64,000 nt of DNA, from the NCBI GenBank assembly GCA_021824125.1, contig JAKALO010000001.1, positions 9,722 to 73,721 on the forward strand, in the 5' to 3' direction. Positions within the stretch are counted from its first letter, which is position 1. Each line of letters starts with the position of its first letter. This document shows positions 1 to 51,184 of the stretch, in pieces. Under the pieces are notes generated by a model, which did not search any database, was not told the DNA's origin, and saw only the letters and a program-made list of their open reading frames with translations. The DNA comes from Deltaproteobacteria bacterium (GTDB lineage Bacteria > Desulfobacterota > Deferrimicrobia > Deferrimicrobiales > Deferrimicrobiaceae). The translations under genes and the position numbers were made by a program.

Positions 1-634
1 GGACCTCCTCGTCGCTTTCCGTTTTTTCACCACCGGCGATGACCACGGAGGACGCGCACCCGTCGGTGACCTCCCGGAACGTTTCGGGGCTCCCCGTGTA
101 GGGGACCTTGACGATGTCCGCGCCCATCTCCGCGCCTACCCGCGCCGCGTGGCGCACGTAGCGAACGTCGTATTCGTTCCTGATCTTCGGGCCGCGGGTG
201 TAGATCATCGCGAGCAGCGGCATCCCCCAGCGCTGGCAGGCGCTGGAGACCGCGCCGAAATCCCGGAGCATCCGCGCTTCGTCGTCGGCGCCAAGGTTCA
301 CATGTATGGACACCGCGTCCGCGCCCATCTGCAGGGCGTCCTCCACCGTCGCAACGAGGACCTTCGTGTTCGAGTCCGGGGAGAGGTTCGTGCTGGCGGA
401 AAGGTGAATGATGAGACCCAGGTCTTTCCCGTAGCCGCGGTGGCCGAACATGGCGGCCCCCCGGTGCACCAGGGCGGCGTTGGCGCCGCCCTCGGCGATG
501 AGGTTGGCGGCTGGCGGAACCTGGACTAGCCCGGGGATGGGTCCGACGGTCACCCCGTGATCCATAGGCACGATCACCGTCCTCCGGGTGTTCCGGTCGA
601 TGATCCGCTCCATGCGGATTTTCTTTCCGATCAT
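1..634 (-). CDS. Class I aldolase family protein (DhnA / ADH-synthase type), C-terminus beyond window edge
   Basis: Minus-strand ORF with ATG at 634 ([36 protein letters not shown]...[19 protein letters not shown]...) preceded by SD-like GGAAGGGGAG. The sequence resembles DhnA-type class I fructose-bisphosphate aldolase / 2-amino-3,7-dideoxy-D-threo-hept-6-ulosonate synthases. The ORF runs off position 1. Confidence 0.65.
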
Positions 635-685: not shown

Positions 686-2251
686 TTACTTGAAGACCCC
701 GCGAACCTTGAGAAGATCGTTCAGGTAGGTGGTGTTGTCCGCGTACTTGAGCGCCTCTTCGTATTTCACTTTGCCTGCCGAGACCATCTCCGCCAGGTTC
801 CAGTCGATGCTGACCAGCTCTTCGGTGTTCGCCTGCATAAGACCGCGCATCTGGTTGACCTTCCCTTCCCGGATGGCGTTCCGGACGCGGAGCGACGTGC
901 CCATCTTCTCCCACGCGAGCGTCCTGCCGGGCCCGTTCGCCCGGCGCAGGAGCCTCTGGGAGAACACCAGGAGCAGACTCTCCGCCAGTTGCGCGCGGAT
1001 CTGGGGCTGCTGGTTCCCCGGGAAGATGTCGATGATACGGTCCACCGAGGCCGTCGCGCTGTTGGCATGCAGCGTTCCCATGACAAGGTGCCCCGTCTCC
1101 GCCGCCGTCAACGCGATGGAGATGCTCTCGTAGTCGCGCAGCTCTCCGATGACTATAACGTCCGGGTTCTGCCGGAAGATGTGCCGCAGGCCGTCGGCGA
1201 AGGACAGCGTGTCGTTCCCCACCTCCCGCTGGTTGATGTTCGAGTTCTTGTGCCGGTGCGTGAACTCTATCGGGTCCTCTATCGTTATGACGTTGGCCTT
1301 CCGTTCCCGGTTGACCACTTCCACCAGGTTGGCGAGCGTGGTGGATTTCCCGTGGCCGTTGGGTCCGCTGATCAGGATGAGCCCCTGCGTCTTGAGCGCG
1401 TATTCACGGAGAAAATCCGGCAGCCCGAGCTCGGCCGCGCTCGGGATGGAGTCCGCGACGTGCCTCGCGGTGAACGCGATTGAGCTTCGTTGCCTGTAGA
1501 GGTTGCAGCGGAAACGTGCCACTCCTTCGAGCGAGTAGGCGAAGTCGAGCTCCTTGAAGTCCTGGAACGTGCGCCTTTGCTCGGGGGTCATGATCTCGTG
1601 GATCATCTGCTCGATTTCCGCCGGCTTGAACGCGGGCAGGGACAGTCGCCGGATCTCGTTGTCGACGCGGATCGACGGGATGGCGCCCGCGGACAGGTGC
1701 AGGTCCTGGCCCTTCCAGGACACCAGCGCTTCAAGGAGGCTTTCCAGGGTCTTCTCCACCTTGACCCTCTTTCCGGTCGCCTTCTCGCCCTGGAGCTTCA
1801 GATTCACCGTGCCGTAGCCGTGGGTCTGGAAGAACGCGAGCGCCTTCTCGAAGTGGACCGCGGAGAGGATCACCGGCTTTGTGCTGTGTCCCGACTGGAA
1901 CTCCACGTCCGAAAGGGCGGAGAGGTCGGTCGGGTCCACCATCCCGATGACCAGGCGCTTCCCCTCGAACCCGATGGGCAGGAGACGCCGCAGGCGGACG
2001 GTTTCGAGCTGGACCAGCCGTTGTATCGAGGAGGGGACCTCCACCTTGTCCAGGTTGATGTGCTGCATTCCCATCTGCTCGGAAAGGGTGTTCAGTAGCG
2101 CTTCCTCGCTGAGAACCCCCAGCCGGATGAGGTTTTCCCCAAGCGTACCCCCGAGCTGGCGCTGGGTCTTGAGCGCCTGCTGAAGCTGCTCTTCCTGGAT
2201 CAGGCCCGCCGCAACCAGTATCTCGCCTATCTTCAGCTTTTTATCCGTCAT
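686..2251 (-). CDS. PilT-family type IV pilus retraction ATPase with an N-terminal MshEN (T2SSE_N) domain
   Basis: 521-aa ORF. The C-terminal two-thirds carry PilT/PilU hallmarks (Walker A GPNGHGKSTT, ITIEDPIEF, GHLVMGTLHANSA). The N-terminal ~140 aa contain two tandem MshEN-type motifs (KIGEILVAAGLIQEEQLQQALKTQ and LGENLIRLGVLSEEALLNTLSEQ). Confidence 0.85.
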   Translation of the reverse strand: MTDKKLKIGEILVAAGLIQEEQLQQALKTQRQLGGTLGENLIRLGVLSEEALLNTLSEQMGMQHINLDKVEVPSSIQRLVQLETVRLRRLLPIGFEGKRLVIGMVDPTDLSALSDVEFQSGHSTKPVILSAVHFEKALAFFQTHGYGTVNLKLQGEKATGKRVKVEKTLESLLEALVSWKGQDLHLSAGAIPSIRVDNEIRRLSLPAFKPAEIEQMIHEIMTPEQRRTFQDFKELDFAYSLEGVARFRCNLYRQRSSIAFTARHVADSIPSAAELGLPDFLREYALKTQGLILISGPNGHGKSTTLANLVEVVNRERKANVITIEDPIEFTHRHKNSNINQREVGNDTLSFADGLRHIFRQNPDVIVIGELRDYESISIALTAAETGHLVMGTLHANSATASVDRIIDIFPGNQQPQIRAQLAESLLLVFSQRLLRRANGPGRTLAWEKMGTSLRVRNAIREGKVNQMRGLMQANTEELVSIDWNLAEMVSAGKVKYEEALKYADNTTYLNDLLKVRGVFK

Positions 2252-4143: not shown

Positions 4144-5799
4144 CTACGGAGGGCATGGCTCCGTCGGGGATTTCGCCGCCGTGGACGGTTCCCCCGGCAC
4201 TCCGCCGATCTTGCGGATCGCATCCTCGGCGGCCTTCCGGACCTGGGGGTCCTTGTCGGCCAGGAGGTCACGGAGGGGGCGCATAACGCGGGTGAACCCG
4301 ACCTCCCCCAGCGCGGACGCCGCGCGGGCGCGAACCGCCGGGTTGTCGTCCTGGAGCGAGAGGAGAAGGGGTTCGACGACCACTTCACCCATCTGGGAAA
4401 GGACGAAGCTGGCGACGAAGCCTACCCGCTCGTCGGCCAGTAGGCGGATCAGCGGGTATATGGCCCTCGTGTCCTTGATCTGCCTCATGGTGCACAACGA
4501 GGCGATCCGTGTTCCGATGTCCTCCTCCTTGTTAAGGGTTTCAAGGCACCCCTCGAGCACCCGGTCACCCATCCCCTCGAGCACGTACTGCTTCCAGTAG
4601 TCGAGCTCCGGATCGTTGCTTCTGCGCAGCAGGGGGCGGAGGTTCGCGTCCCCGAACTGCCGGAGCGCCATGATGCATAGCCACCTGATCTCCGGGTCTC
4701 CGAGCCCGTTGACCAGTCCTTCGACCGACGCCGGGTCCGCGATCGCCATAAGGGCGGCGACCGTGGAGACCTTGACATCCGGGGAAGGGTCACGCAGCAC
4801 CTCGAGGAGAATGGGCATCGCCGCGCGGTATTTGCTCTTCCGGATCGACGTCGCGGCGCCGATCTTCTGCAGGACGTTCCCGCCGCGAAGCATCCGGAAG
4901 AGGATCGGGCGGCCCGCGTCGGGCATCCGCGCGAAGGCCTCTGTGGCCGCCTCGCGGACATTCGGATCGTTGTCGTCCAGGTAGGAGGCCACGTCCTCAA
5001 GTATGGACGGGTCCGCCGTCTCCCCCAGGGTAAGGCAGGCGTAATACCGCACCAGCGGTGAAGGGTCGGAAAGGATCTTGCGAAGGTAGAGCAGCGTTTC
5101 CCTGGTGCCCATGGCCCCCAGGGCGCGGATCGCCCCGACCCGTATGTCGACGTTCCCGTAGGAAAGGAGGGAGGTCAGGGCCGCGGTCGCGTCCTCCCCG
5201 AACTTGGGCAGGGACTCGATCGCCGCGTCGCGGACCGACGGGTAGACGCTGTCGACTTTCGCCATGACCAGCCGCAGCCCCCCCTCGCCCCCGAACTGGG
5301 CGACGGTCTGGATCGCCTGGACCTGGACCGACGGGTCCGAATCGTTGAGCGCGGCCTGGATGGATGGGGCAGCGGCCCGGGCGTCGAGCTGCCTCAGGAT
5401 GAAGAGGGCGTTCCGGCGGACGACCGGATTATTATGCTTCAGGGCAAGCACGGTCTTTCGGACGGATTCGTTGCCTATATTGATGAGCGCGCCGCTCGCG
5501 AGCCATCGAACCTCCTCGCTGTCGAGCGCCCCTATCAGCGTGTCCACCGATGCGGGGCCGAGGTCCACGAGGCGTTTCATGGCGTGGCTTCGAACGGCCA
5601 GGTCCCGGTCCTTCAGGAACGGCAGTATCTCCTTCGCCGCCTCCGTGCCCCCCTTGTCGAAGAGCACGTCGATCGCCTGCGTTTTCTCCTTCTGTGCGTC
5701 CTCCATCGGGATTTCCGCGCGCAGAATCGTGGAAGCCGAAAACAGGGACAGAAATAACACAAGCGGGAACGACAGGTGCAATCGGGCGCTTCGGTACAA
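4144..5799 (-). CDS. Secreted HEAT-repeat (PBS lyase HEAT-like) protein
   Basis: 551-aa ORF with an N-terminal signal peptide (LSFPLVLFLSLFSASTILRA). It contains more than ten repeats of the DPxxxVRxxAxxALG type typical of HEAT/PBS-lyase repeats. Confidence 0.7.
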   Translation of the reverse strand: MYRSARLHLSFPLVLFLSLFSASTILRAEIPMEDAQKEKTQAIDVLFDKGGTEAAKEILPFLKDRDLAVRSHAMKRLVDLGPASVDTLIGALDSEEVRWLASGALINIGNESVRKTVLALKHNNPVVRRNALFILRQLDARAAAPSIQAALNDSDPSVQVQAIQTVAQFGGEGGLRLVMAKVDSVYPSVRDAAIESLPKFGEDATAALTSLLSYGNVDIRVGAIRALGAMGTRETLLYLRKILSDPSPLVRYYACLTLGETADPSILEDVASYLDDNDPNVREAATEAFARMPDAGRPILFRMLRGGNVLQKIGAATSIRKSKYRAAMPILLEVLRDPSPDVKVSTVAALMAIADPASVEGLVNGLGDPEIRWLCIMALRQFGDANLRPLLRRSNDPELDYWKQYVLEGMGDRVLEGCLETLNKEEDIGTRIASLCTMRQIKDTRAIYPLIRLLADERVGFVASFVLSQMGEVVVEPLLLSLQDDNPAVRARAASALGEVGFTRVMRPLRDLLADKDPQVRKAAEDAIRKIGGVPGEPSTAAKSPTEPCPP

Positions 5800-16250: not shown

Positions 16251-18881
<2,631 letters not shown>

Positions 18882-18898
18882 TGTCGGCTTTTGTCCTC

Positions 18899-19348
18899 TC
18901 ATTCCTGGATGTCGGCAAAAAAAACCCCGATCGCCTTCCTGCACGCGTCCGGGGGAAACCCCCGCCCCGCAAGGAAACGGAACGCCTTCGCGGCCCCCTC
19001 ACGCCCGGGAGCAAGCCCGCCCCGGAACTTCTTACGCAGGGCGGCCGAAGCCGCGGCCAGCTCCTCCTCCGCCGAGGATGAGTTCCGCAACGCCTCCTCG
19101 ACCAGCGCGGGGGGAAACCTGCGCGCCCGAAGGGTCCATGCTATCTTCCCGGAGCCGTAGCCTCGCGTTTCGCGGTACGAACGGACCAGATGATCGCACA
19201 ACTTGGGGTCGTCCGCCAACCCGAGCTCCCGTAGCCTGCGTATGACACTTGCCGCCTCGACGTCCGGAAACCCTTTTTTCGAAAGCCTTTCCCGGATCTC
19301 CCCCTCGCTCAGGGACCGCCGGGAGAGCATCCACAAAGCGGCCCGCAT
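18899..19348 (-). CDS. recX: Regulatory protein RecX
   Basis: Three-helix RecX repeats. ATG at 19348; an alternative TTG at 19411 would overlap pilT. Confidence 0.75.
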   Translation of the reverse strand: MRAALWMLSRRSLSEGEIRERLSKKGFPDVEAASVIRRLRELGLADDPKLCDHLVRSYRETRGYGSGKIAWTLRARRFPPALVEEALRNSSSAEEELAAASAALRKKFRGGLAPGREGAAKAFRFLAGRGFPPDACRKAIGVFFADIQE

Positions 19349-19379
19349 CGCCCCGCCGGGCGTCCCTTCCGGGGTCCTG

Positions 19380-20507
19380 CTACTTCTTCGGCTGCTGCTC
19401 GTTCTTGTCAAAATCCTCCCAGCTCAGGTCGGATGTCGAGGACACCCCGCGGACGCGGAGCGCGAAGTCGTCCGGGTTCGACGCCTGCCGGAGCGCCTCC
19501 TCCAGGGTGATCAGCCCATCCTTGTGGAGCATCATGAGCGACTGGTCGAACGTCTGCATACCGTAGCTCGTGAATCCCTGCGAGATCGCCTCACGGATCT
19601 TCTTGGTTTTATCCTTGTCCTCGATGTACTCCTTGACCCTGGCGGTGTTGATCAGGACCTCGATAGCCGGGACGCGCCCCTTCCCGTCGGCCTTCGGCAC
19701 CAGGCGCTGGGAGATGACCGCCTTGAGTATGGAAGCCAGCTGGATCCGGACCTGCTTCTGCTGGTAAGGCGGGAAGGCGGCCACGACGCGGTTGATCGTC
19801 TCGCCGGCGTCGAGCGTGTGGAGCGTCGACAGGACGAGGTGCCCCGTCTCGGCGGCCGTGATGGCCGTCTCGATCGTCTCGAGGTCGCGCATCTCGCCGA
19901 CGAGGATAACGTCGGGGTCCTGGCGAAGGGCGCTCTTCAGCGCCCCCGAGAGCGAAACGGTGTCCACTCCCAGCTCCCTCTGGTTGATGATGCTCTTCCT
20001 GTCGCGGAGGAGGAACTCGATGGGGTCCTCGATCGTGATGATGTGGCAGCTGCGATGGCAGTTGATGTATTCGACGATGGAGGCCAGCGTCGTGGACTTC
20101 CCGCAGCCCGTTGTCCCCGTGCACAGGACCAGCCCGCGGGTTTCCATCGCGACCTTCTCGATGACCTTCGGCAGGTGCAGCTCCTCGAAGGACTGGACCC
20201 CGACCGGGACGACGCGGAGCACCATCCCGATGGTGCCCCGCTGGACGAAGATGTTGACGCGGAACCTCCCGAGCCCCGATACGCTGTAGGCGCAGTCCAG
20301 CTCCTGAAGGTGTTCGAACTTCTTGCGCTGTTCGTTGGTCAACATGCTCGCCGACATTGCCTGGAGGTCTTCCGCCCGCAGCGGCTCCTTCACCTTGAGT
20401 GGGACGAGCGTCCCGTGGATACGGAAAACCGGGAGCAGGCCCACCTTGAGGTGGACGTCGGAGGCCCCGTTCCGAACAGCCGACTTGAGGATCTCGTTCA
20501 GTTCCAT
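19380..20507 (-). CDS. pilT: Type IV pilus twitching motility ATPase PilT
   Basis: 375 aa. Canonical PilT motifs (GTTGCGKSTT, IITIEDPIEF, GHLVLSTLHT). SD AAAGGAG. Confidence 0.9.
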   Translation of the reverse strand: MELNEILKSAVRNGASDVHLKVGLLPVFRIHGTLVPLKVKEPLRAEDLQAMSASMLTNEQRKKFEHLQELDCAYSVSGLGRFRVNIFVQRGTIGMVLRVVPVGVQSFEELHLPKVIEKVAMETRGLVLCTGTTGCGKSTTLASIVEYINCHRSCHIITIEDPIEFLLRDRKSIINQRELGVDTVSLSGALKSALRQDPDVILVGEMRDLETIETAITAAETGHLVLSTLHTLDAGETINRVVAAFPPYQQKQVRIQLASILKAVISQRLVPKADGKGRVPAIEVLINTARVKEYIEDKDKTKKIREAISQGFTSYGMQTFDQSLMMLHKDGLITLEEALRQASNPDDFALRVRGVSSTSDLSWEDFDKNEQQPKK

Positions 20508-20521
20508 TCAGGGGGCTCCTT

Positions 20522-21553
20522 TCAGGGGGTTCCTTCCTTCGCGGCGCCACCGGAATCACCGATGCCGTAATGCGCCAGTATCTTCTTGCGCAGCTCGGAA
20601 GCGATTTCCGGGTGCTCCTTGAGGAAACCCCGGGCGTTCTCCCTCCCCTGCCCGATCCGCTCGCCGCCCAGGGAATACCACGCGCCGCTCTTCTCGACCA
20701 TGTCGAGCCCGGTCCCGACGTCCAGCAGGTCCCCTTCCCTCGAGATACCCTCCCCGTAGAGAATGTCGAACTCCGCCTCGCGGAACGGGGGGGCGAGCTT
20801 GTTCTTGACCACCTTCACGCGCGTATGGCTGCCTATGACCGCGTCGTCCTTCTTGATCTGCGTCACCCGGCGTATGTCCATCCGGACGGAGGCGTAGAAC
20901 TTGAGGGCGTTGCCGCCGGTCGTCGTCTCCGGATTGCCGAACATCACCCCGATCTTCATCCGGATCTGGTTTATGAATATGACCGCCGTATGCGACTTGC
21001 TTATCGTGGCCGTGAGTTTCCGCAGGGCCTGGGACATCAGGCGGGCCTGGAGGCCCATATGAGAGTCGCCCATCTCCCCCTCGATCTCCGCCTTGGGGAC
21101 GAGCGCGGCGACGGAGTCGATGACCAGCACGTCCAGCGCGCCGCTCCGCACGAGCATCTCGGCGATCTCGAGGGCCTGCTCCCCGGTGTCCGGCTGGGAG
21201 ATCAGCAGGTCCTCCGTTTTCAGGCCCAGCCTTCTAGCGTACCCGAGATCTAGCGCGTGCTCGGCGTCGATGAAGCCCGCGATGCCGCCCTGCCGCTGCG
21301 CCTCCGCGACGATGTGCAGCGCCAGCGTCGTCTTGCCGGAGGACTCCGGACCGAAGATCTCGGTCACCCTCCCGCGGGGGATGCCGCCGACCCCCAGCGC
21401 CACGTCGAGCGACAGCGCCCCGGTTGATATGACGGCGATGTCCTTCGCGGGGACGTCCGCACCGAGGCGCATGATCGCGCCCTTCCCGTAGTTCTTCTCG
21501 ATCGCCGAAAGCGCCATGTCGAGCGCCTTGCGGCGGTTCGCATCCTGGCTCAT
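20522..21553 (-). CDS. recA: Recombinase RecA
   Basis: 343 aa, unmistakable RecA ([40 protein letters not shown]). Confidence 0.95.
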
Positions 21554-23195: not shown

Positions 23196-24740
23196 ATGAC
23201 GGAAGGCGAACTCATAGGACGAATCACCCGGGCGATCGCTGAACTCGCCAAGGGGATGAAAAGCGTGGGCTTCTACCCTCCGGGGCACCCGACGCTGATA
23301 CAGATCATCTCCAAGATCATTTCGAATTTCGAGGAAATCCCGCTTCCGGAGGCCGGCCTTGAAATAGACGTGACCAGGAACGCCCTTCTGTTCCAGGACA
23401 CTCCGCTCCCCGCGCCGAACAAGACAGTGATCGACCTGAACAGGGAACTCTACATAAGGCAGGCCAGCAAGATCATCTTCCTGCCCAACCTGAAGCCCAG
23501 CGAGATGGTCGAGTTCCTGGGGATCCTTTCCCGCGACATCCAGGAGATCCAGGACGAAGGGGGGATCGAGCGATTGCTCCTCCGGAAGAAAGTCTCCCGG
23601 ATCTGGGCGAACCGTGTGGACTACCTGGGATTGACGGAAATGCTGAAAAAAGAGGAGGCCGGATCCGAAGACCCCGAAGGCGACGGCATGGAAAACGGCG
23701 AACTCCAGGATTCCCTCGATGACATCGCTCCCGAGGAATTGACCATAGGGGACATCATCTCGATGATCGAGAAGGAGTCCGACCCCGTTGCCTACCGCGA
23801 CCACCTGATCGCCCTTTCCCGCGCCCTGTACAACGAGCGCATGGACCGGAAGATAGAACACGCCTCCCGTGCGCTCATGATCTTCGCGGGCCACGTCCAG
23901 CAGCCGCCGATGCAGAATCCGGAGATCGCCAATCTCGCGCGACTCGGGATCAAGGAGATGGCGTCGGACGAGCTGGTCGCCCATTACATCCATCTTCTCC
24001 GGGACAAGGGCGGAAAGGGCCGAAGGGAGGTGGAGACCGTGCTCACGGCGTTCGAGGACCGCGCCGTGAAACCGCTCCTGAAGACGCTTGCGGACGAGGA
24101 GGACCTTCTCCTGCGGAAATCGATCGTCGAGATCGTCGTCAGGATCGGCAGGCCCGCGGTTCCCGCCATCCTCGAGAACCTGAACGATGCCCGGTGGTTC
24201 ATGGTCCGGAACATGGTGACGATCCTGGGGAGCCTCGGCCTCCCGGACCTCGCCCCGCACGTGGCGACAACCCTGTCGCATCCCGATCTTCGCGTCAAGA
24301 AGGAGGCGATCAAGGCCCTTTCCAAGCTCCCCCACCCTTCCGCGGTCACCTCCCTGGGGGAGCTCTGCTTCTTCCCGGAGGAGACCGTGGCGCTCACAGC
24401 CACCGCGGCCATGTCCGCCAAGAAGGAGTCCGAGGCCGTCCTGACGCTTTACAGGCGGGCGGTCGAGAAACGGTTCTTTTTCCCCAACTACCGGCTCGCA
24501 CACGAGGCGATCGACTCGCTGAGGACGATCGGCACCGACGAGGCGATCACCGCCCTGGAGGAGATTCTTAGAACGTCGGCGATCCGGGAGACGCAACGAT
24601 TGCGCGCGATGAAATCCCACGCGCTGAGAAGCATCTCAAAGATACGGGGGGAAAAAGCCAGGGAAGCGCTCCAACGTTGCGCCAAGGCCCCGGAGGGATA
24701 CCTGAGGATGGAAGCGGAGCGTCTTTTAAAGGTCACATAG
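23196..24740 (+). CDS. Protein with a DUF3391-like N-terminal domain fused to C-terminal HEAT repeats
   Basis: 514 aa. The N-terminal ~130 aa align with the N-terminus of the adjacent HD-GYP protein. The C-terminal half has PBS-lyase-type HEAT repeats. Confidence 0.6.
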   Translation: MTEGELIGRITRAIAELAKGMKSVGFYPPGHPTLIQIISKIISNFEEIPLPEAGLEIDVTRNALLFQDTPLPAPNKTVIDLNRELYIRQASKIIFLPNLKPSEMVEFLGILSRDIQEIQDEGGIERLLLRKKVSRIWANRVDYLGLTEMLKKEEAGSEDPEGDGMENGELQDSLDDIAPEELTIGDIISMIEKESDPVAYRDHLIALSRALYNERMDRKIEHASRALMIFAGHVQQPPMQNPEIANLARLGIKEMASDELVAHYIHLLRDKGGKGRREVETVLTAFEDRAVKPLLKTLADEEDLLLRKSIVEIVVRIGRPAVPAILENLNDARWFMVRNMVTILGSLGLPDLAPHVATTLSHPDLRVKKEAIKALSKLPHPSAVTSLGELCFFPEETVALTATAAMSAKKESEAVLTLYRRAVEKRFFFPNYRLAHEAIDSLRTIGTDEAITALEEILRTSAIRETQRLRAMKSHALRSISKIRGEKAREALQRCAKAPEGYLRMEAERLLKVT

Positions 24741-24750
24741 GGAGAGATCC

Positions 24751-26142
24751 ATGGACCGGCGCGAACAGGAACTTCTGATCACCAAGCTCATAAGGGCGCT
24801 CGGGACGTCCCTCAAGAACCGTGGGATATATCCCGCCACGCACCCCCAGGTGCGGAACCCCGTCGAAAAAATCCACCAGGACCTTCTCCTCTTTTTCGTC
24901 GACAGGAACGAACTGGTCCTCGTCATCACGGACGGCACGCTGGTCTTCGAGGGAGTCCCTATCTTCAGCCTGACCTCCTCCCTGGAAAACTTCATGGACC
25001 GCCTCGGCAGGATCGGGGTGCCCGCGATCATCTTCGACAAGGGTCTCACCGTGGGCGACATCGACACCTTCGTGAGATTCCTCCACGAAACCAGGGAACA
25101 GGGGCTGCCTCCGAAAAGGATCCAGGAACTCCTGGAACAGGCCGGGGCCGCCCACATACGGGTCAAGCCGATGGAGGAGGAGGAGGAGGACGACTACGCG
25201 ATAGCCCACCAGGTCTACGACAACGCCGTTTCCGTCGTGGTCTCGATCCTGCGGGACGTGCGCATGGGCCGGATACCCTCGGGAGCCGAGTCCGAACAGG
25301 TGGTCAAGGACATGAGCAGCATGCTCACGCGGAACCGTGACGCCATGCTCGCGCTGACGCTCATCAAGAACTACGACGAGTACACATACAACCACTCCGT
25401 CAACGTGGCCGTCCTATCCCTGGCCATCGCCGACGCCATGTCGCTTCCCGGCGAGACCAAGGTCGACGTTGGCGTCGCGGGGCTCCTGCACGACATCGGA
25501 AAAACGCAGCTTGCCCTGGAGCTCATCCGCAAGCCCGGAACGCTGAGCGTGAAGGAGTTCGAGGAGATCAAGAAACACCCGGACGAGGGGTTCCTCCTCC
25601 TCACGAAGATGTCCCACATCCGGCCGTCCTCCGCCTACATGGTCCTCGAGCACCACATGCGGTTCGACAAGACGGGGTATCCCCAACCCAACCCGGAACA
25701 TACCGTAAACCCCAACTCGAACATCATCCCGGTCGCCGACTGCTACGACGCGCTGACTACGATGCGCTCCTACCAGAAGGCCAGATATCCGCAACAGGCC
25801 CTCGATATCATGACGAAGATCGCCGGCAAGTCCCTCGACCCGGAAATCGTGTCCCTGTTCGTGAATACGATGGGCGCATACCCCGTGGGAACGATGGTCC
25901 GCCTGAACACCATGGAGATCGGCGTGGTATCGGGATCCGGGCGCGACGGAGAAAAAGGCCGGAAAGTCGTGGTGCTGTTCGACCGGGACGGGAAACCGCT
26001 CCCATGCCCGGAACAGGTGGATCTCGTCGAGGGGGGCAAGGCGACGGAAACGGACCAACGGGCCATCCTGGGAACGGTGAACCCGAACCTCTACCCGTCG
26101 ATGCCGAGCGAAAACCTGTTCCTCTCCGCCGCCCCCGCGTAA
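24751..26142 (+). CDS. HD-GYP domain c-di-GMP phosphodiesterase with a DUF3391-like N-terminal domain
   Basis: 463 aa. HD-GYP signature (HHMRFDKTGYPQ). Confidence 0.85.
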   Translation: MDRREQELLITKLIRALGTSLKNRGIYPATHPQVRNPVEKIHQDLLLFFVDRNELVLVITDGTLVFEGVPIFSLTSSLENFMDRLGRIGVPAIIFDKGLTVGDIDTFVRFLHETREQGLPPKRIQELLEQAGAAHIRVKPMEEEEEDDYAIAHQVYDNAVSVVVSILRDVRMGRIPSGAESEQVVKDMSSMLTRNRDAMLALTLIKNYDEYTYNHSVNVAVLSLAIADAMSLPGETKVDVGVAGLLHDIGKTQLALELIRKPGTLSVKEFEEIKKHPDEGFLLLTKMSHIRPSSAYMVLEHHMRFDKTGYPQPNPEHTVNPNSNIIPVADCYDALTTMRSYQKARYPQQALDIMTKIAGKSLDPEIVSLFVNTMGAYPVGTMVRLNTMEIGVVSGSGRDGEKGRKVVVLFDRDGKPLPCPEQVDLVEGGKATETDQRAILGTVNPNLYPSMPSENLFLSAAPA

Positions 26143-26185: not shown

Positions 26186-26761
26186 TCAGGCGTCTCCGCG
26201 GCTCCACTCCGCAAGCGCGCAGGCAACCGAGGCCCTCACCGACTCGTTCTCCGCGTCGGCCTGCAGGAGCACCTTCTCCCACCCGTCTTTCCCCGCCGTG
26301 AGCGCGTACGCCACCACGGCCTTGCCGGCGACCTCGGGGTCGGGGTTGGCGAGGTACCTCTCGATGATGGGCGCCAATTCCTTCCGGCGTGATTTTCCGA
26401 GGGTCTCTAAGATGTTCCCGAGCACGACCCCCTGTTCGCGGGGAAGTCGATCGACGAGGGCCTTCAGGACCGGCACGGTGGGTGAAAACGCGAGCACGCG
26501 GGCGGCCGCCCCCCGGACCTCCGCTTCGCGGTCGGAAAGGGCGGCAAAAAGCAGGTAGACCCCCTCCGTGCCGCCGATGTCCTCGGCGGAGAAGACCACC
26601 CGCATGCGCTCTTCGAGTGTCCCCGTCCGCAGCGTCTGCAGGCAGGAGGGAACCGAACGCTTCGCGCGCAACCGGTCCATCGCGGCGGAAGCCGCTTCCC
26701 GCACCCCCGGTGAAGGGTCCGTCAGCAATTTCCGAAGAGTTTCCTCGATCCGGTCCACCAC
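26186..26761 (-). CDS. HEAT-repeat protein
   Basis: 191 aa with repeated DPxxxVRxxA motifs. GTG start. Confidence 0.55.
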   Translation of the reverse strand: MVDRIEETLRKLLTDPSPGVREAASAAMDRLRAKRSVPSCLQTLRTGTLEERMRVVFSAEDIGGTEGVYLLFAALSDREAEVRGAAARVLAFSPTVPVLKALVDRLPREQGVVLGNILETLGKSRRKELAPIIERYLANPDPEVAGKAVVAYALTAGKDGWEKVLLQADAENESVRASVACALAEWSRGDA

Positions 26762-49083: not shown

Positions 49084-50003
49084 ACGGGGAGCTCCGTCTC
49101 GAAGGGCTGGCGATACCCCCGTGTTCCGTTCAGCAGCGGTTCCTCCGCTTCGCGCTCCTGATGTCGATCACCCTTCACGCAGCCGGCATTCTCACCTCCC
49201 CCTACTGGAACACGCGTCCGGCGGCGCGGGAGGAACTCATGATGGTCGACATCGCGGACATTCCGGCCGCGGAAATGCCGAAGATCCCCGAGATCCCGTT
49301 CACGGCGCCTCCGCCGCCCTCGCCGGCGGAAGCCCATCCCGCGCCGAAAGAGGCTGGCCCCCTCCCCGCGCAGCCGCCTCCGCCACCGACGCGCGAGATG
49401 ATACGGGAAAAGATCGCCACGCGCGGGCTCCTTAAGGTGCTATCCCCGGGAAAAGCCGGAGAGGCGGTCGCCGGCGCCGACCCGTTCGCAGGCATAAAGA
49501 TCCCGAGGGAAATCCGCGTCGCATCGAGGGAACCCGCCACGTCGAACGCATACGAGGTTTCCCGGCAGGATGCGGAGCCGCCCAGGGAAAAAGCCCACGG
49601 CATAGGCAACCAGGTGGCGTCGTCGACGCGGGCGGGCCGTGCCCTCTCCTCCCGGGTGTTCCGGACCGACGCGGGCCTGGAGGGCGAGATCAGCGGCGGG
49701 ATCGAGGACGAAAACCGCGACTCCGGGGTGATCGCGTCAACCGTAAGCCAGTACCGCAGCGGGATCAAATACGCCTACAACAAGGAACTCCTGAAAAACC
49801 CCTCCTTGAGCGGAAAGATCGTCGTGGCTTTCGTCATCCTGCCGAACGGTTCGGTGCAATCCGCGGAGATCCGCCAAAGCAGCGTAAACTGGCCTCCCCT
49901 CGAAGACGCCGTGCTGAAAAGGCTCCAGCACTGGAAATTCCCGAAATCGAAAGGGACCCCGGTGCGGGTCGTGTTTCCCTTCGTGTTCCATCCAGAGATG
50001 TGA
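49080..50003 (+). CDS. TonB C-terminal-domain protein (GltG/PglI/NfsG-like)
   Basis: 307 aa with an N-terminal TM helix, a Pro-rich spacer and a C-terminal TonB-C-like domain. Confidence 0.7.
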   Translation: MNGELRLEGLAIPPCSVQQRFLRFALLMSITLHAAGILTSPYWNTRPAAREELMMVDIADIPAAEMPKIPEIPFTAPPPPSPAEAHPAPKEAGPLPAQPPPPPTREMIREKIATRGLLKVLSPGKAGEAVAGADPFAGIKIPREIRVASREPATSNAYEVSRQDAEPPREKAHGIGNQVASSTRAGRALSSRVFRTDAGLEGEISGGIEDENRDSGVIASTVSQYRSGIKYAYNKELLKNPSLSGKIVVAFVILPNGSVQSAEIRQSSVNWPPLEDAVLKRLQHWKFPKSKGTPVRVVFPFVFHPEM

Positions 50004-51184
50004 CCGCCAGCGTGGAAAAGATCCGGGTCTACACCTGGTTTCCTGCCCTGGTCGTCCTTGCGGCCTTGTGTGCCGCGGACTTCCCCGCCCACGCCGCCGA
50101 TAAGCAGCGACCCGGCCGGAGCCGGAAGTCCCGGAAGGCCCCGCCAAGACCCGCGGTCGGGGGGGTGGCGGACTATTTCTTCGAGGACGCACCTCTCCCC
50201 GACTCCGTGACAGGGGTTCCGCCGGTCGAGGCGTCCGTGAGCGACGTGGATCAAGCACGCCCGTCCCCGGGCGGGCCGGTTCCGCCCCCTGCCTGCGACC
50301 GTACGCCGAATCCGTGCGAGCGCCTCTCGTGGGTCGAGCAGGTGATGTCGATCCGCGACCGGAAGGCGATCCCGCACCTCCGGGCGATGGCCGTCGACGA
50401 CGCCCACGAGCGCGTCCGTGAAAGGAGTCTGGGCGCCCTGGTGATCCTCGGGGACACCGGTGCGGCGCCTCTCTTCCTCGGCCGCCTCTCGGGCGACCCT
50501 TCCCCGGCGGTCAGGCGGGCCGCGGCCGAGGGGATCGGCCTGCTGAGGATACCCGTCCCCCCGGACAGCCTGGCGGAGCCGCTGATCAAGGATTCGAATC
50601 CGCTTGTCCGCGCCGAATGCGCCCGCGCGATCGGCCGGTCGGCCTTCGTCCAGGCGGGACCGGCACTCATGGTCGCCATCCTGAAGGACCCCTCCCCGGA
50701 AGTCCGGGCCCTCTCCGCAGAGGCGCTCGCCGGCATGAAGACCCCGTGGGGGACTGAAGCGCTGAAGCAGGCGGCGCGGGACGAGGACCCGATCGTACGC
50801 CTCTACGTCCTCCGGGGGCTCGTGGAATTCTCCCCGACCGCCGCCGGACCGCTGTTCAAGGAAGTGTGGGACACCACGAGCGACCCCGAGCTGCGCATCG
50901 AGGCCTTTCGCGGGCTCCTTCGCTCCGGGGAGGGGAAGAAGTGGAGCGAGTCCGGTCTCTCCGACAGCGATGCGCGGATCCGCTTCCTAGCCCTGCGGGA
51001 GTGGCTTTCAAACCTTAACTTCGATCCCCGGAATCCCTACACCCGCAACAACAACTTCCTCCCGCGGATCGAGCCGTTTCTCGCGGACTCCTCGCGGGGG
51101 ATCCGCGAACTCGCGAAGGGGTATCTCGAGAACCTGGGGTTCACGGTCCGCCAGTCCGGGTTCGTCTACATCCTCCAGAAGTAA
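50000..51184 (+). CDS. Secreted HEAT-repeat protein
   Basis: 394 aa, GTG start overlapping the upstream stop, signal peptide, multiple PBS-lyase HEAT-like repeats. Confidence 0.65.
   Translation: MTASVEKIRVYTWFPALVVLAALCAADFPAHAADKQRPGRSRKSRKAPPRPAVGGVADYFFEDAPLPDSVTGVPPVEASVSDVDQARPSPGGPVPPPACDRTPNPCERLSWVEQVMSIRDRKAIPHLRAMAVDDAHERVRERSLGALVILGDTGAAPLFLGRLSGDPSPAVRRAAAEGIGLLRIPVPPDSLAEPLIKDSNPLVRAECARAIGRSAFVQAGPALMVAILKDPSPEVRALSAEALAGMKTPWGTEALKQAARDEDPIVRLYVLRGLVEFSPTAAGPLFKEVWDTTSDPELRIEAFRGLLRSGEGKKWSESGLSDSDARIRFLALREWLSNLNFDPRNPYTRNNNFLPRIEPFLADSSRGIRELAKGYLENLGFTVRQSGFVYILQK

Follow-up and report, generated by a model that had tools for sequence, protein, structure and literature searches.

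An MshEN domain fused to a PilT-type ATPase in Deferrimicrobiaceae: a predicted c-di-GMP receptor on a retraction-type motor

The window analyzed here, a stretch of 64,000 nucleotides from a Deltaproteobacteria bacterium of the family Deferrimicrobiaceae (GenBank assembly GCA_021824125.1, contig JAKALO010000001.1, positions 9,722 to 73,721), contains on its minus strand a gene (686..2251, with the stop codon at 686-688) for which open reading frame analysis gave a protein of 521 amino acids. Judged from its sequence and predicted structure, this protein is a two-module motor, in which an MshEN domain (residues 5-144), i.e., a domain of the type that binds cyclic dimeric guanosine monophosphate (c-di-GMP), is joined by a disordered tether to a PilT-type hexameric ATPase (residues 169-516). 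The features of the protein, all given in window positions of the minus strand, begin with c-di-GMP motif I (KIGEILVAAGLIQEEQLQQALKTQ; residues 7-30, 2162..2233), identified by the NF053729 model and by motif spacing, followed by a five-residue spacer, RQLGG (residues 31-35, 2147..2161), and by motif II (TLGENLIRLGVLSEEALLNTLSEQ; residues 36-59, 2075..2146), identified by motif spacing and conservation, which has a Thr in place of the Arg "lid". An MshEN_C (N1D-type) alpha/beta subdomain (residues 61-144, 1820..2071) is supported by the Pfam match and by a predicted local distance difference test (pLDDT) score of 87-97 in the AlphaFold2 model, and is followed by a flexible inter-domain linker of approximately 25 residues (residues 145-168, 1748..1819), which has pLDDT < 50 at residues 155-161 and varies in length among homologues. 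The remainder comprises the PilT N-terminal (N2D, PAS-like) domain (residues 169-270, 1442..1747) and the PilT C-terminal ATPase domain (CTD; residues 271-521, 689..1441); the former was delimited by end-to-end alignment with PilT structures and by a TIGR01420 match that starts at profile position 2, and the latter by its motif boxes and by Foldseek.

An identical 521-residue protein is called on nine contigs of independent NCBI and ENA assemblies, and more than 120 protein clusters (70-100% identity) contain proteins of the same length (520-522 residues) with the same Pfam pair (PF05157 and PF00437); where named, the source organisms of these clusters are mostly "Deltaproteobacteria" or metagenome-assembled genomes of Candidatus Deferrimicrobiaceae. 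As the same frame and length recur in these clusters and on independent contigs, the fusion does not represent an assembly or gene-calling artefact.

The ATPase core matches Pfam T2SSE (PF00437) at residues 282-493 (E = 1.5e-45) and scores 399.5 bits, against a cut-off of 319.1, with the model for the "PilT/PilU family type 4a pilus ATPase" (TIGR01420), with residues 169-506 covering profile positions 2-340 of 343. The scores obtained with the PilB (TIGR02538; 191.6 vs. a cut-off of 675.65) and GspE (TIGR02533; 143.1 vs. a cut-off of 630.25) equivalog models, by contrast, are far below threshold, in agreement with the sequence-only reading of this DNA, which had assigned the core to the PilT rather than to the PilB/GspE family. 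Among solved structures, residues 167-506 match Thermus thermophilus PilT2 (5fl3, 1.8e-90) and Geobacter metallireducens PilT4 (6ojx, 1.4e-89) from end to end, while the match to PilU is weaker (3.6e-71) and the match to PilB (~1e-46) is limited to residues 280-438. The full-length AlphaFold2 model has a pLDDT of 87.7, with a disordered linker between MshEN and the PilT N2D and CTD, and in Foldseek comparisons the core aligned with the PilT structures 5FL3, 6OJX, and 3JVV (the last from Pseudomonas aeruginosa) at target-normalised template modelling (TM) scores of 0.88-0.94; identity to these canonical PilT proteins over N2D and CTD is 40-45%.

Walker A (GPNGHGKS, 1343-1366), the Asp box (EDPIE, 1265-1279), Walker B (DVIVIGELRD, 1133-1162), and the His box (TGHLVMGTLH, 1067-1096) are all intact. 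The core also contains an AIRNLIRE-like motif, RVRNAIRE (866-889), which is identical to AIRNLIRE at five of eight positions and keeps the R-N-x-I-R-E core; a role of the AIRNLIRE motif in PilT retraction was reportedly described by Aukema and colleagues in 2005. With a single Cys (C249) and no CxxC, the fusion protein lacks a Zn-binding tetracysteine. The fusion protein differs from canonical PilT proteins, which have approximately 340-380 residues and nothing before N2D, by the additional 168 N-terminal residues of MshEN and linker, by its Walker A (GPNGHGKS vs. GPTGSGKS), by its position in a separate clade (see below), and by the lack of an adjoining pilB or pilC.

The pair of Pfam domains found here, MshEN and T2SSE, also occurs in PilB and MshE, and the profile of the N-domain family is closest to the N-domains of Geobacter and Myxococcus PilB; one might therefore suspect a PilB- or MshE-type assembly ATPase misread as PilT, or an artefact joining two genes, which we nevertheless consider extremely improbable. 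The PilB-type version of this explanation is ruled out by the low PilB and GspE scores, the restriction of the PilB alignment to residues 280-438, the missing tetracysteine, and a 100/100 split from PilB in the tree described below, and the artefact version by a continuous, confident AlphaFold2 model and by the frame of 520-522 residues, which recurs across more than 120 clusters as well as on independent contigs.

The N-terminal domain, which had been called MshEN on sight of the sequence, matches Pfam MshEN (PF05157) at residues 61-138 (45.5 bits vs. a cut-off of 23.1) and the NCBIfam model "c-di-GMP_motif, MshE-related" (NF053729) at residues 7-59 (61.3 bits vs. a cut-off of 38, E = 5e-17), far beyond chance. 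Sequence matches include MshE (5HTL; 2e-17), PilB N-domains, and PilF GSPII domains; at the level of the family profile, the closest relatives are the N-domains of Geobacter and Myxococcus PilB (~1e-40 to 1e-39), followed by MshE (8e-32). The AlphaFold2 model of residues 1-150 (pLDDT 91.3) shows a four-helix bundle and an alpha/beta subdomain, and its top match in the PDB is MshE with bound c-di-GMP (5HTL; TM 0.70/0.75, E = 3e-11).

Both c-di-GMP motifs are present with an exact 24 + 5 + 24 layout (KIGEILVAAGLIQEEQLQQALKTQ / RQLGG / TLGENLIRLGVLSEEALLNTLSEQ), which fits the 24-5-24 rule defined by Wang et al. (2016) from the crystal structure of MshE with c-di-GMP (PMC5013675). In an alignment with V. 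cholerae MshE, which is offset by two residues, nine of the 12 ligand-contact residues are identical. The correspondences (MshE first) in motif I are R9 to K7, L10 to I8, G11 to G9, L25 to L23, L29 to L27, and Q32 to Q30, and those in motif II are R38 to T36, L39 to L37, G40 to G38, L54 to L52, L58 to L56, and Q61 to Q59. The three changes are thus K7, I8, and T36, of which the replacement of L10 by Ile is conservative. The earlier description of two intact motifs holds for motif I, which conforms fully (K-I-G ... L..AL..Q) although it starts with Lys instead of Arg; motif II, which had been quoted without its first residue, conforms except at this position 1, where Thr36 (MshE Arg38) belongs to neither the relaxed set [RKPN] nor the extended one (R/K/L). 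The residue at position 1 provides a side-chain "lid" stacked on guanine, and the consensus for it has been extended to R/K/L (PMC11731258). In T. thermophilus PilF, GSPII-B has Lys and Leu (K167/L196) at position 1 and binds c-di-GMP with a dissociation constant (Kd) of 6 nM, and GSPII-C, with Pro335 at position 1 of motif II, binds with a Kd of ~460 nM (PMC11731258). Lys7 therefore counts as a validated position-1 residue, given that GSPII-B with Lys binds at 6 nM. By analogy with these domains, position 36 would represent a demonstrably tolerant site, although Thr itself lies outside the validated residues. PilF thus shows that MshEN-type sites can bind c-di-GMP with residues other than Arg at position 1, a precedent both for Lys7 and for the tolerance of position 36; PilF differs from the protein described here in being an assembly ATPase in which three GSPII domains are arranged in tandem. 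Taken together, the sequence features of the MshEN domain make c-di-GMP binding probable.

Conservation of the predicted site was assessed in 121 close homologues (at least 70% identity to the query). K7, I8, G9, L12, G16, L23, L27, and Q30 are each kept in at least 119 of these sequences and T36, G38, L41, L52, L56, and Q59 in all of them, while residue 37 is L, V, or I and G45 is found in 109; positions 14, 19, 24, 25, 28, 29, 31, 48, 54, and 55 are freely variable in the same set. Among more distant relatives, for which motif checks were based on alignments as well as on hidden Markov models, 13 divergent representatives of the clade that contains the query (clade M, see below) showed 80% identity to the query at the key positions, as compared to 33% at other positions in residues 5-60, and six clade-M members tested with NF053729 (P0124, P0127, P0141, P0121, P0131, and P0147) scored above the cut-off. 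By both conservation measures, the aligned sequences indicate that the ligand site is under purifying selection. Position 1 of motif II is R or K in most clade-M lineages; in the Deferrimicrobia group, Thr has become fixed there (121/121) as a derived state.

These patterns bear on an explanation in which the MshEN domain has lost c-di-GMP sensing and serves for docking alone, as an N1D module of the PilB style through which the PilT-like motor would be attached to PilM/PilC or some other partner; the motor itself would be constitutive or under another form of regulation. Thr36, outside the validated residues at position 1 of motif II, would fit such a loss, and there are many known non-binding MshEN domains (e.g., those of XpsE, PilF GSPII-A, and P. 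aeruginosa PilB); moreover, an Egicoccus MshEN-PilT with degenerate motifs and no NF053729 match, described below, shows that non-sensing MshEN-PilT proteins exist. The known non-binders, however, carry several substitutions at the G, L, and Q positions, none of which is found in the fusion protein, and position 1 tolerates K, L, and P. In addition, the contact residues are the most conserved part of the N-domain, at 99-100% in the 121 close homologues and at the 80% vs. 33% noted for divergent members, which pure docking would not explain. We therefore regard a non-sensing docking module as unlikely.

Among 1.84 billion representatives clustered at 50% identity, 56,697 relatives of the fusion protein were identified. 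Among the best 150 of these, 28 representatives join an MshEN-like N-domain to a PilT core, with identities to the query from 56% down to the low 30s. The cores of 70 proteins were placed in a neighbour-joining tree (100 bootstraps), in which PilB was separated from all other sequences (100/100), and PilU (100/100) and canonical PilT (78/100) each formed a clade. The query falls into a third clade, clade M (99/100), which comprises 19 sequences, 17 of them with MshEN, and in which Walker A is typically G-x-x-G-H-G-K. The placement of the core apart from PilB is thus as the sequence-only reading had expected, but it lies outside the canonical PilT and PilU clades as well. The tree and domain compositions indicate that clade M is an old and separate branch of the PilT/PilU family with the MshEN fusion as its ancestral state, and, on the same sequence data, that clade M is widespread and the fusion is not a one-off.

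MshEN-bearing PilT proteins are also found elsewhere in the tree, suggesting that the fusion arose, or was kept, in several lineages. Among the GTDB matches listed, a locus of an Egicoccus sp. (Actinomycetota; L011, 4618-9630) has the order pilB–MshEN-pilT–pilC, in which PilB is of the tetracysteine type (CARC...CQAC) and the 531-residue MshEN-PilT has canonical PilT motifs but degenerate c-di-GMP motifs that are not matched by NF053729. Also among the matches listed, a Ca. Sumerlaeaceae locus (L082, 5935-9739) contains a gene for a stand-alone 457-residue MshEN protein that overlaps the start of pilT by 4 nt, with a pilU-like gene after pilT; the 457-residue protein has a c-di-GMP motif score of 55.4 bits (cut-off 38) and a C-terminal half without assignment. 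Based on its gene arrangement, this locus looks like an intermediate form, i.e., a split counterpart of the MshEN-PilT fusion.

Four clade-M members (P0147, P0136, P0143, and P0130) have degenerate Walker A and Walker B boxes (e.g., GHGGGT, GHGRST, and GQDKST for Walker A; ...DELAD and ...PDLTD for Walker B), while their c-di-GMP motif is retained with a full score. One of these, P0147 (L005, 8001-9572; Walker A GHGGGT), scores 253 bits with TIGR01420, below the cut-off of 319, but above the cut-off with NF053729, and its stop codon is overlapped by the gene for a conserved 362-residue protein with no Pfam match. These degenerate-ATPase members may, from their motifs, be pseudo-ATPase c-di-GMP sensors.

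The fusion gene lies downstream of genes encoding a HEAT-repeat protein, HisG, and a TIGR02757/DUF2400 protein, all on the same strand, a minus-strand run that had already been recognized from the sequence, and upstream of genes for 2-amino-3,7-dideoxy-D-threo-hept-6-ulosonate (ADH) synthase and type II dehydroquinate synthase. The order hisG–DUF2400–fusion gene–ADH synthase gene is kept in orthologous loci, including the complete 2.3-Mb chromosome CP070783.1; this synteny is conserved within Deferrimicrobia only, and the genes involved are housekeeping genes. The ADH synthase gene (2-634, minus strand) is directly downstream of the fusion gene and, with the type II dehydroquinate synthase gene further downstream (L001, 11618-13419), represents an archaeal-type entry into aromatic amino-acid biosynthesis in a bacterium.

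A second PilT-family ATPase gene in the window (19380-20507, minus strand) encodes a protein of 375 residues that scores 467 bits with TIGR01420 and has no AIRNLIRE-like motif. While it had previously been read as a canonical pilT, it stands in a row with recA (20522-21553), recX (18899-19411), and alaS (16251-18944), all on the minus strand; this recA–pilT–recX–alaS row (16251-21553) has the arrangement of Geobacter PilT1/GSU0146, and the protein is therefore a recA-linked paralogue. For Geobacter PilT1, a function alongside the recombination or DNA-uptake machinery, and not in pilus retraction, has been proposed.

PilT paralogues with postulated non-pilus functions, such as the recA-linked Geobacter PilT1 whose arrangement recurs in the window, provide a model for a c-di-GMP effector outside type IV pili, in which the PilT-like ATPase (a pseudo-ATPase in degenerate members) would act in DNA uptake or processing, in secretion, or in exopolysaccharide signalling as proposed for Myxococcus xanthus PilB. 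The fusion gene is an orphan in variable, non-pilus contexts, its clade is distinct from canonical PilT, and some members of the clade have degenerate ATPase motifs, all of which would fit such a function. On the other hand, a location away from pil clusters is common for pilT genes, parallel MshEN-PilT proteins or MshEN and PilT pairs are found inside pilB-pilT-pilC and pilT-pilU clusters, and the protein retains an AIRNLIRE-like motif and all catalytic boxes. The host lineage (MBNT15/Desulfobacterota_E/Deferrimicrobia), moreover, encodes type IV pili and is without flagella (PMC9386147). On balance, we consider a role outside type IV pili improbable.

The architecture itself is supported by every sequence, profile, fold, and tree comparison made, whereas c-di-GMP-gated pilus retraction, which the sequence-only reading had taken this architecture to imply, may follow from it. 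The explanation that we favor, by a modest degree above even chances, is that the MshEN domain is a c-di-GMP receptor on a PilT-type motor of clade M, with the ligand controlling the engagement of the motor. One c-di-GMP would be bound per MshEN_N bundle by Leu/Ile triangles, by the backbone amides of G9/E10 and G38/E39, and by Q30 and Q59. The alpha/beta subdomain is of the N1D type, which in PilB/GspE-type ATPases docks on the machine, and ligand binding may reorient or stabilise the N-domain, as in MshE and PilB. The state of the N-domain would in turn control ATP turnover and the engagement of the type IV pilus platform (PilM/PilC) by the PilT-like hexamer, so that a retraction-type motor would be a direct target of c-di-GMP. 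For a PilT-like motor, pilus depolymerisation would be the most likely output; we rate as even the chance that the protein depolymerises type IV pili in this way. As to the direction of control, mechanistic homology with MshE points to engagement of the motor in the ligand-bound form, a best guess that amounts to a coin toss. The opposite direction, in which c-di-GMP holds the motor off, is almost as likely, and is suggested by the physiological intuition that high c-di-GMP favors piliation and attachment. A link to pili is supported by the Egicoccus pilB–MshEN-pilT–pilC order, by the Sumerlaeaceae MshEN gene with pilT-pilU, and by a PilB-like MshEN-T2SSE gene that is located four genes away from the gene of one other clade-M member.

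Several observations weigh against c-di-GMP-controlled retraction by this protein. Retraction activity would not be simply transferable from PilT, as the core is placed outside the canonical PilT clade. By comparison with MshE and PilF, the Arg "lid" over one of the guanines has given way to Thr36, at a position where the validated residues are R, K, and L plus Pro in the weaker GSPII-C, and the affinity could be low. No pil machinery genes and no pilins (prepilin motif) were found in the 64-kb window, where the gene is located among housekeeping genes, and other clade-M members are found in differing, mostly non-pilus neighbourhoods. In Clostridium perfringens PilB2, c-di-GMP binding left the ATPase rate unchanged (reviewed in PMC11656802); "gating" may therefore not act on catalysis. 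Finally, the combination of degenerate Walker boxes with a kept c-di-GMP motif in the members described above hints that at least part of the family has a sensor or scaffold role rather than a motor role.

A bolder possibility, which we regard as rather doubtful, is that clade M makes up a further functional class of type IVa pilus motors, the third after PilB and PilT/PilU. Such a motor would combine a PilT-fold hexamer with the N1D/MshEN module of PilB and would compete with PilB for docking to PilM/PilC in a c-di-GMP-dependent manner; it might serve as a single, bidirectional motor where canonical PilT is missing, and members that combine dead Walker boxes with intact c-di-GMP sites would be non-catalytic plugs on the platform. 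If true, this would imply direct second-messenger control of motor exchange, i.e., a switch between extension and retraction.

Compared to known systems, the N-terminal module is most similar to that of V. cholerae MshE (5HTL), with which it shares the four-helix bundle plus N1D, the 24-5-24 motifs, nine of 12 contacts, and the best fold match; the two proteins likely share their logic as well, with a hexameric pilus ATPase to which a c-di-GMP receptor is attached. In contrast to MshE-, PilB-, and GspE-type proteins, the ATPase of the fusion is PilT-type with a PilT N2D, it lacks the Zn tetracysteine, and it has Thr for MshE Arg38. A c-di-GMP input to pilus motors, including retraction ATPases, is provided indirectly by FimX-PilZ-PilB and by the Xanthomonas PilZ protein XC_2249, which acts with PilT/PilU (PMC4624772); in these systems, however, the receptor is a separate protein, whereas here it is covalently fused.

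PilT and PilU have been stated to lack an MshEN domain and to be unlikely to be regulated by c-di-GMP (PMC4624772), and PilT is entered under "no binding" in a review from 2023. In Wang et al. (2016; PMC5013675), Supplementary Table 4 gives only the "MshEN-T2SSE" architecture, with PilB and MshE as examples, no N-terminal domain has been reported for the four Geobacter PilT paralogues, and databases name homologues of the fusion simply "PilT/PilU family". In the literature that we found on MshEN, GSPII, or T2SSE_N with PilT or retraction ATPases, or on Geobacter PilT paralogues, an MshEN-PilT fusion is not described. Each module is textbook; their combination, a domain shuffle with a predicted function, is absent from that literature and contrary to the stated assumption.

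How c-di-GMP weighs pilus extension against retraction is a matter of active research, and the known inputs are the extension motor (MshE/PilB, via MshEN) or adaptors (FimX, PilZ). A conserved and widespread PilT-family clade with an apparently functional MshEN site would give the second messenger a direct route to a retraction-type motor. The fusion also provides a natural construct for the mechanical role of the N1D/MshEN module, because the same domain is found on a motor of opposite polarity. As the host lineage is non-flagellated and predicted to be iron-reducing, with pili for contact with surfaces and minerals, such regulation may matter ecologically. For annotation, the combination "MshEN + T2SSE" in a domain database should not be equated with "PilB-like".

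Searches for relatives also identified tandem PilT-PilT double-ATPase fusions of approximately 710-760 residues (one of 1024 residues), which are very common (P0122, P0125-P0129, P0133, P0134, and P0276-P0394). These proteins are named "PilT" in Chondromyces crocatus, C. apiculatus, Polyangiales, and Myxococcota, and each matches the PilT profile twice; a covalent dimer of a hexameric motor subunit is unusual and apparently unstudied.

With regard to c-di-GMP turnover, no GGDEF genes were found in the 64-kb window. The HD-GYP protein that had been noted in the window is encoded on the plus strand (24751-26142; 463 residues) and matches Pfam HD_5 (E = 2.4e-24), with the motifs LLHDIGK and HHMRFDKTGYP; it is located approximately 22 kb from the fusion gene and is unlinked to it, and thus provides weak context. 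Its HHMRFDKTGYP differs from the usual HHE..DG.GYP, its approximately 200-residue N-terminal region has no Pfam match at E ≤ 1e-5, and its catalytic competence is uncertain from sequence. The window also contains four genes for HEAT-repeat proteins (4144-5799, minus strand; 23196-24740, plus strand; 26186-26761, minus strand; and 50000-51184, plus strand), one of which encodes an N-terminal signal-like sequence and one of which is located immediately upstream of the HD-GYP gene.

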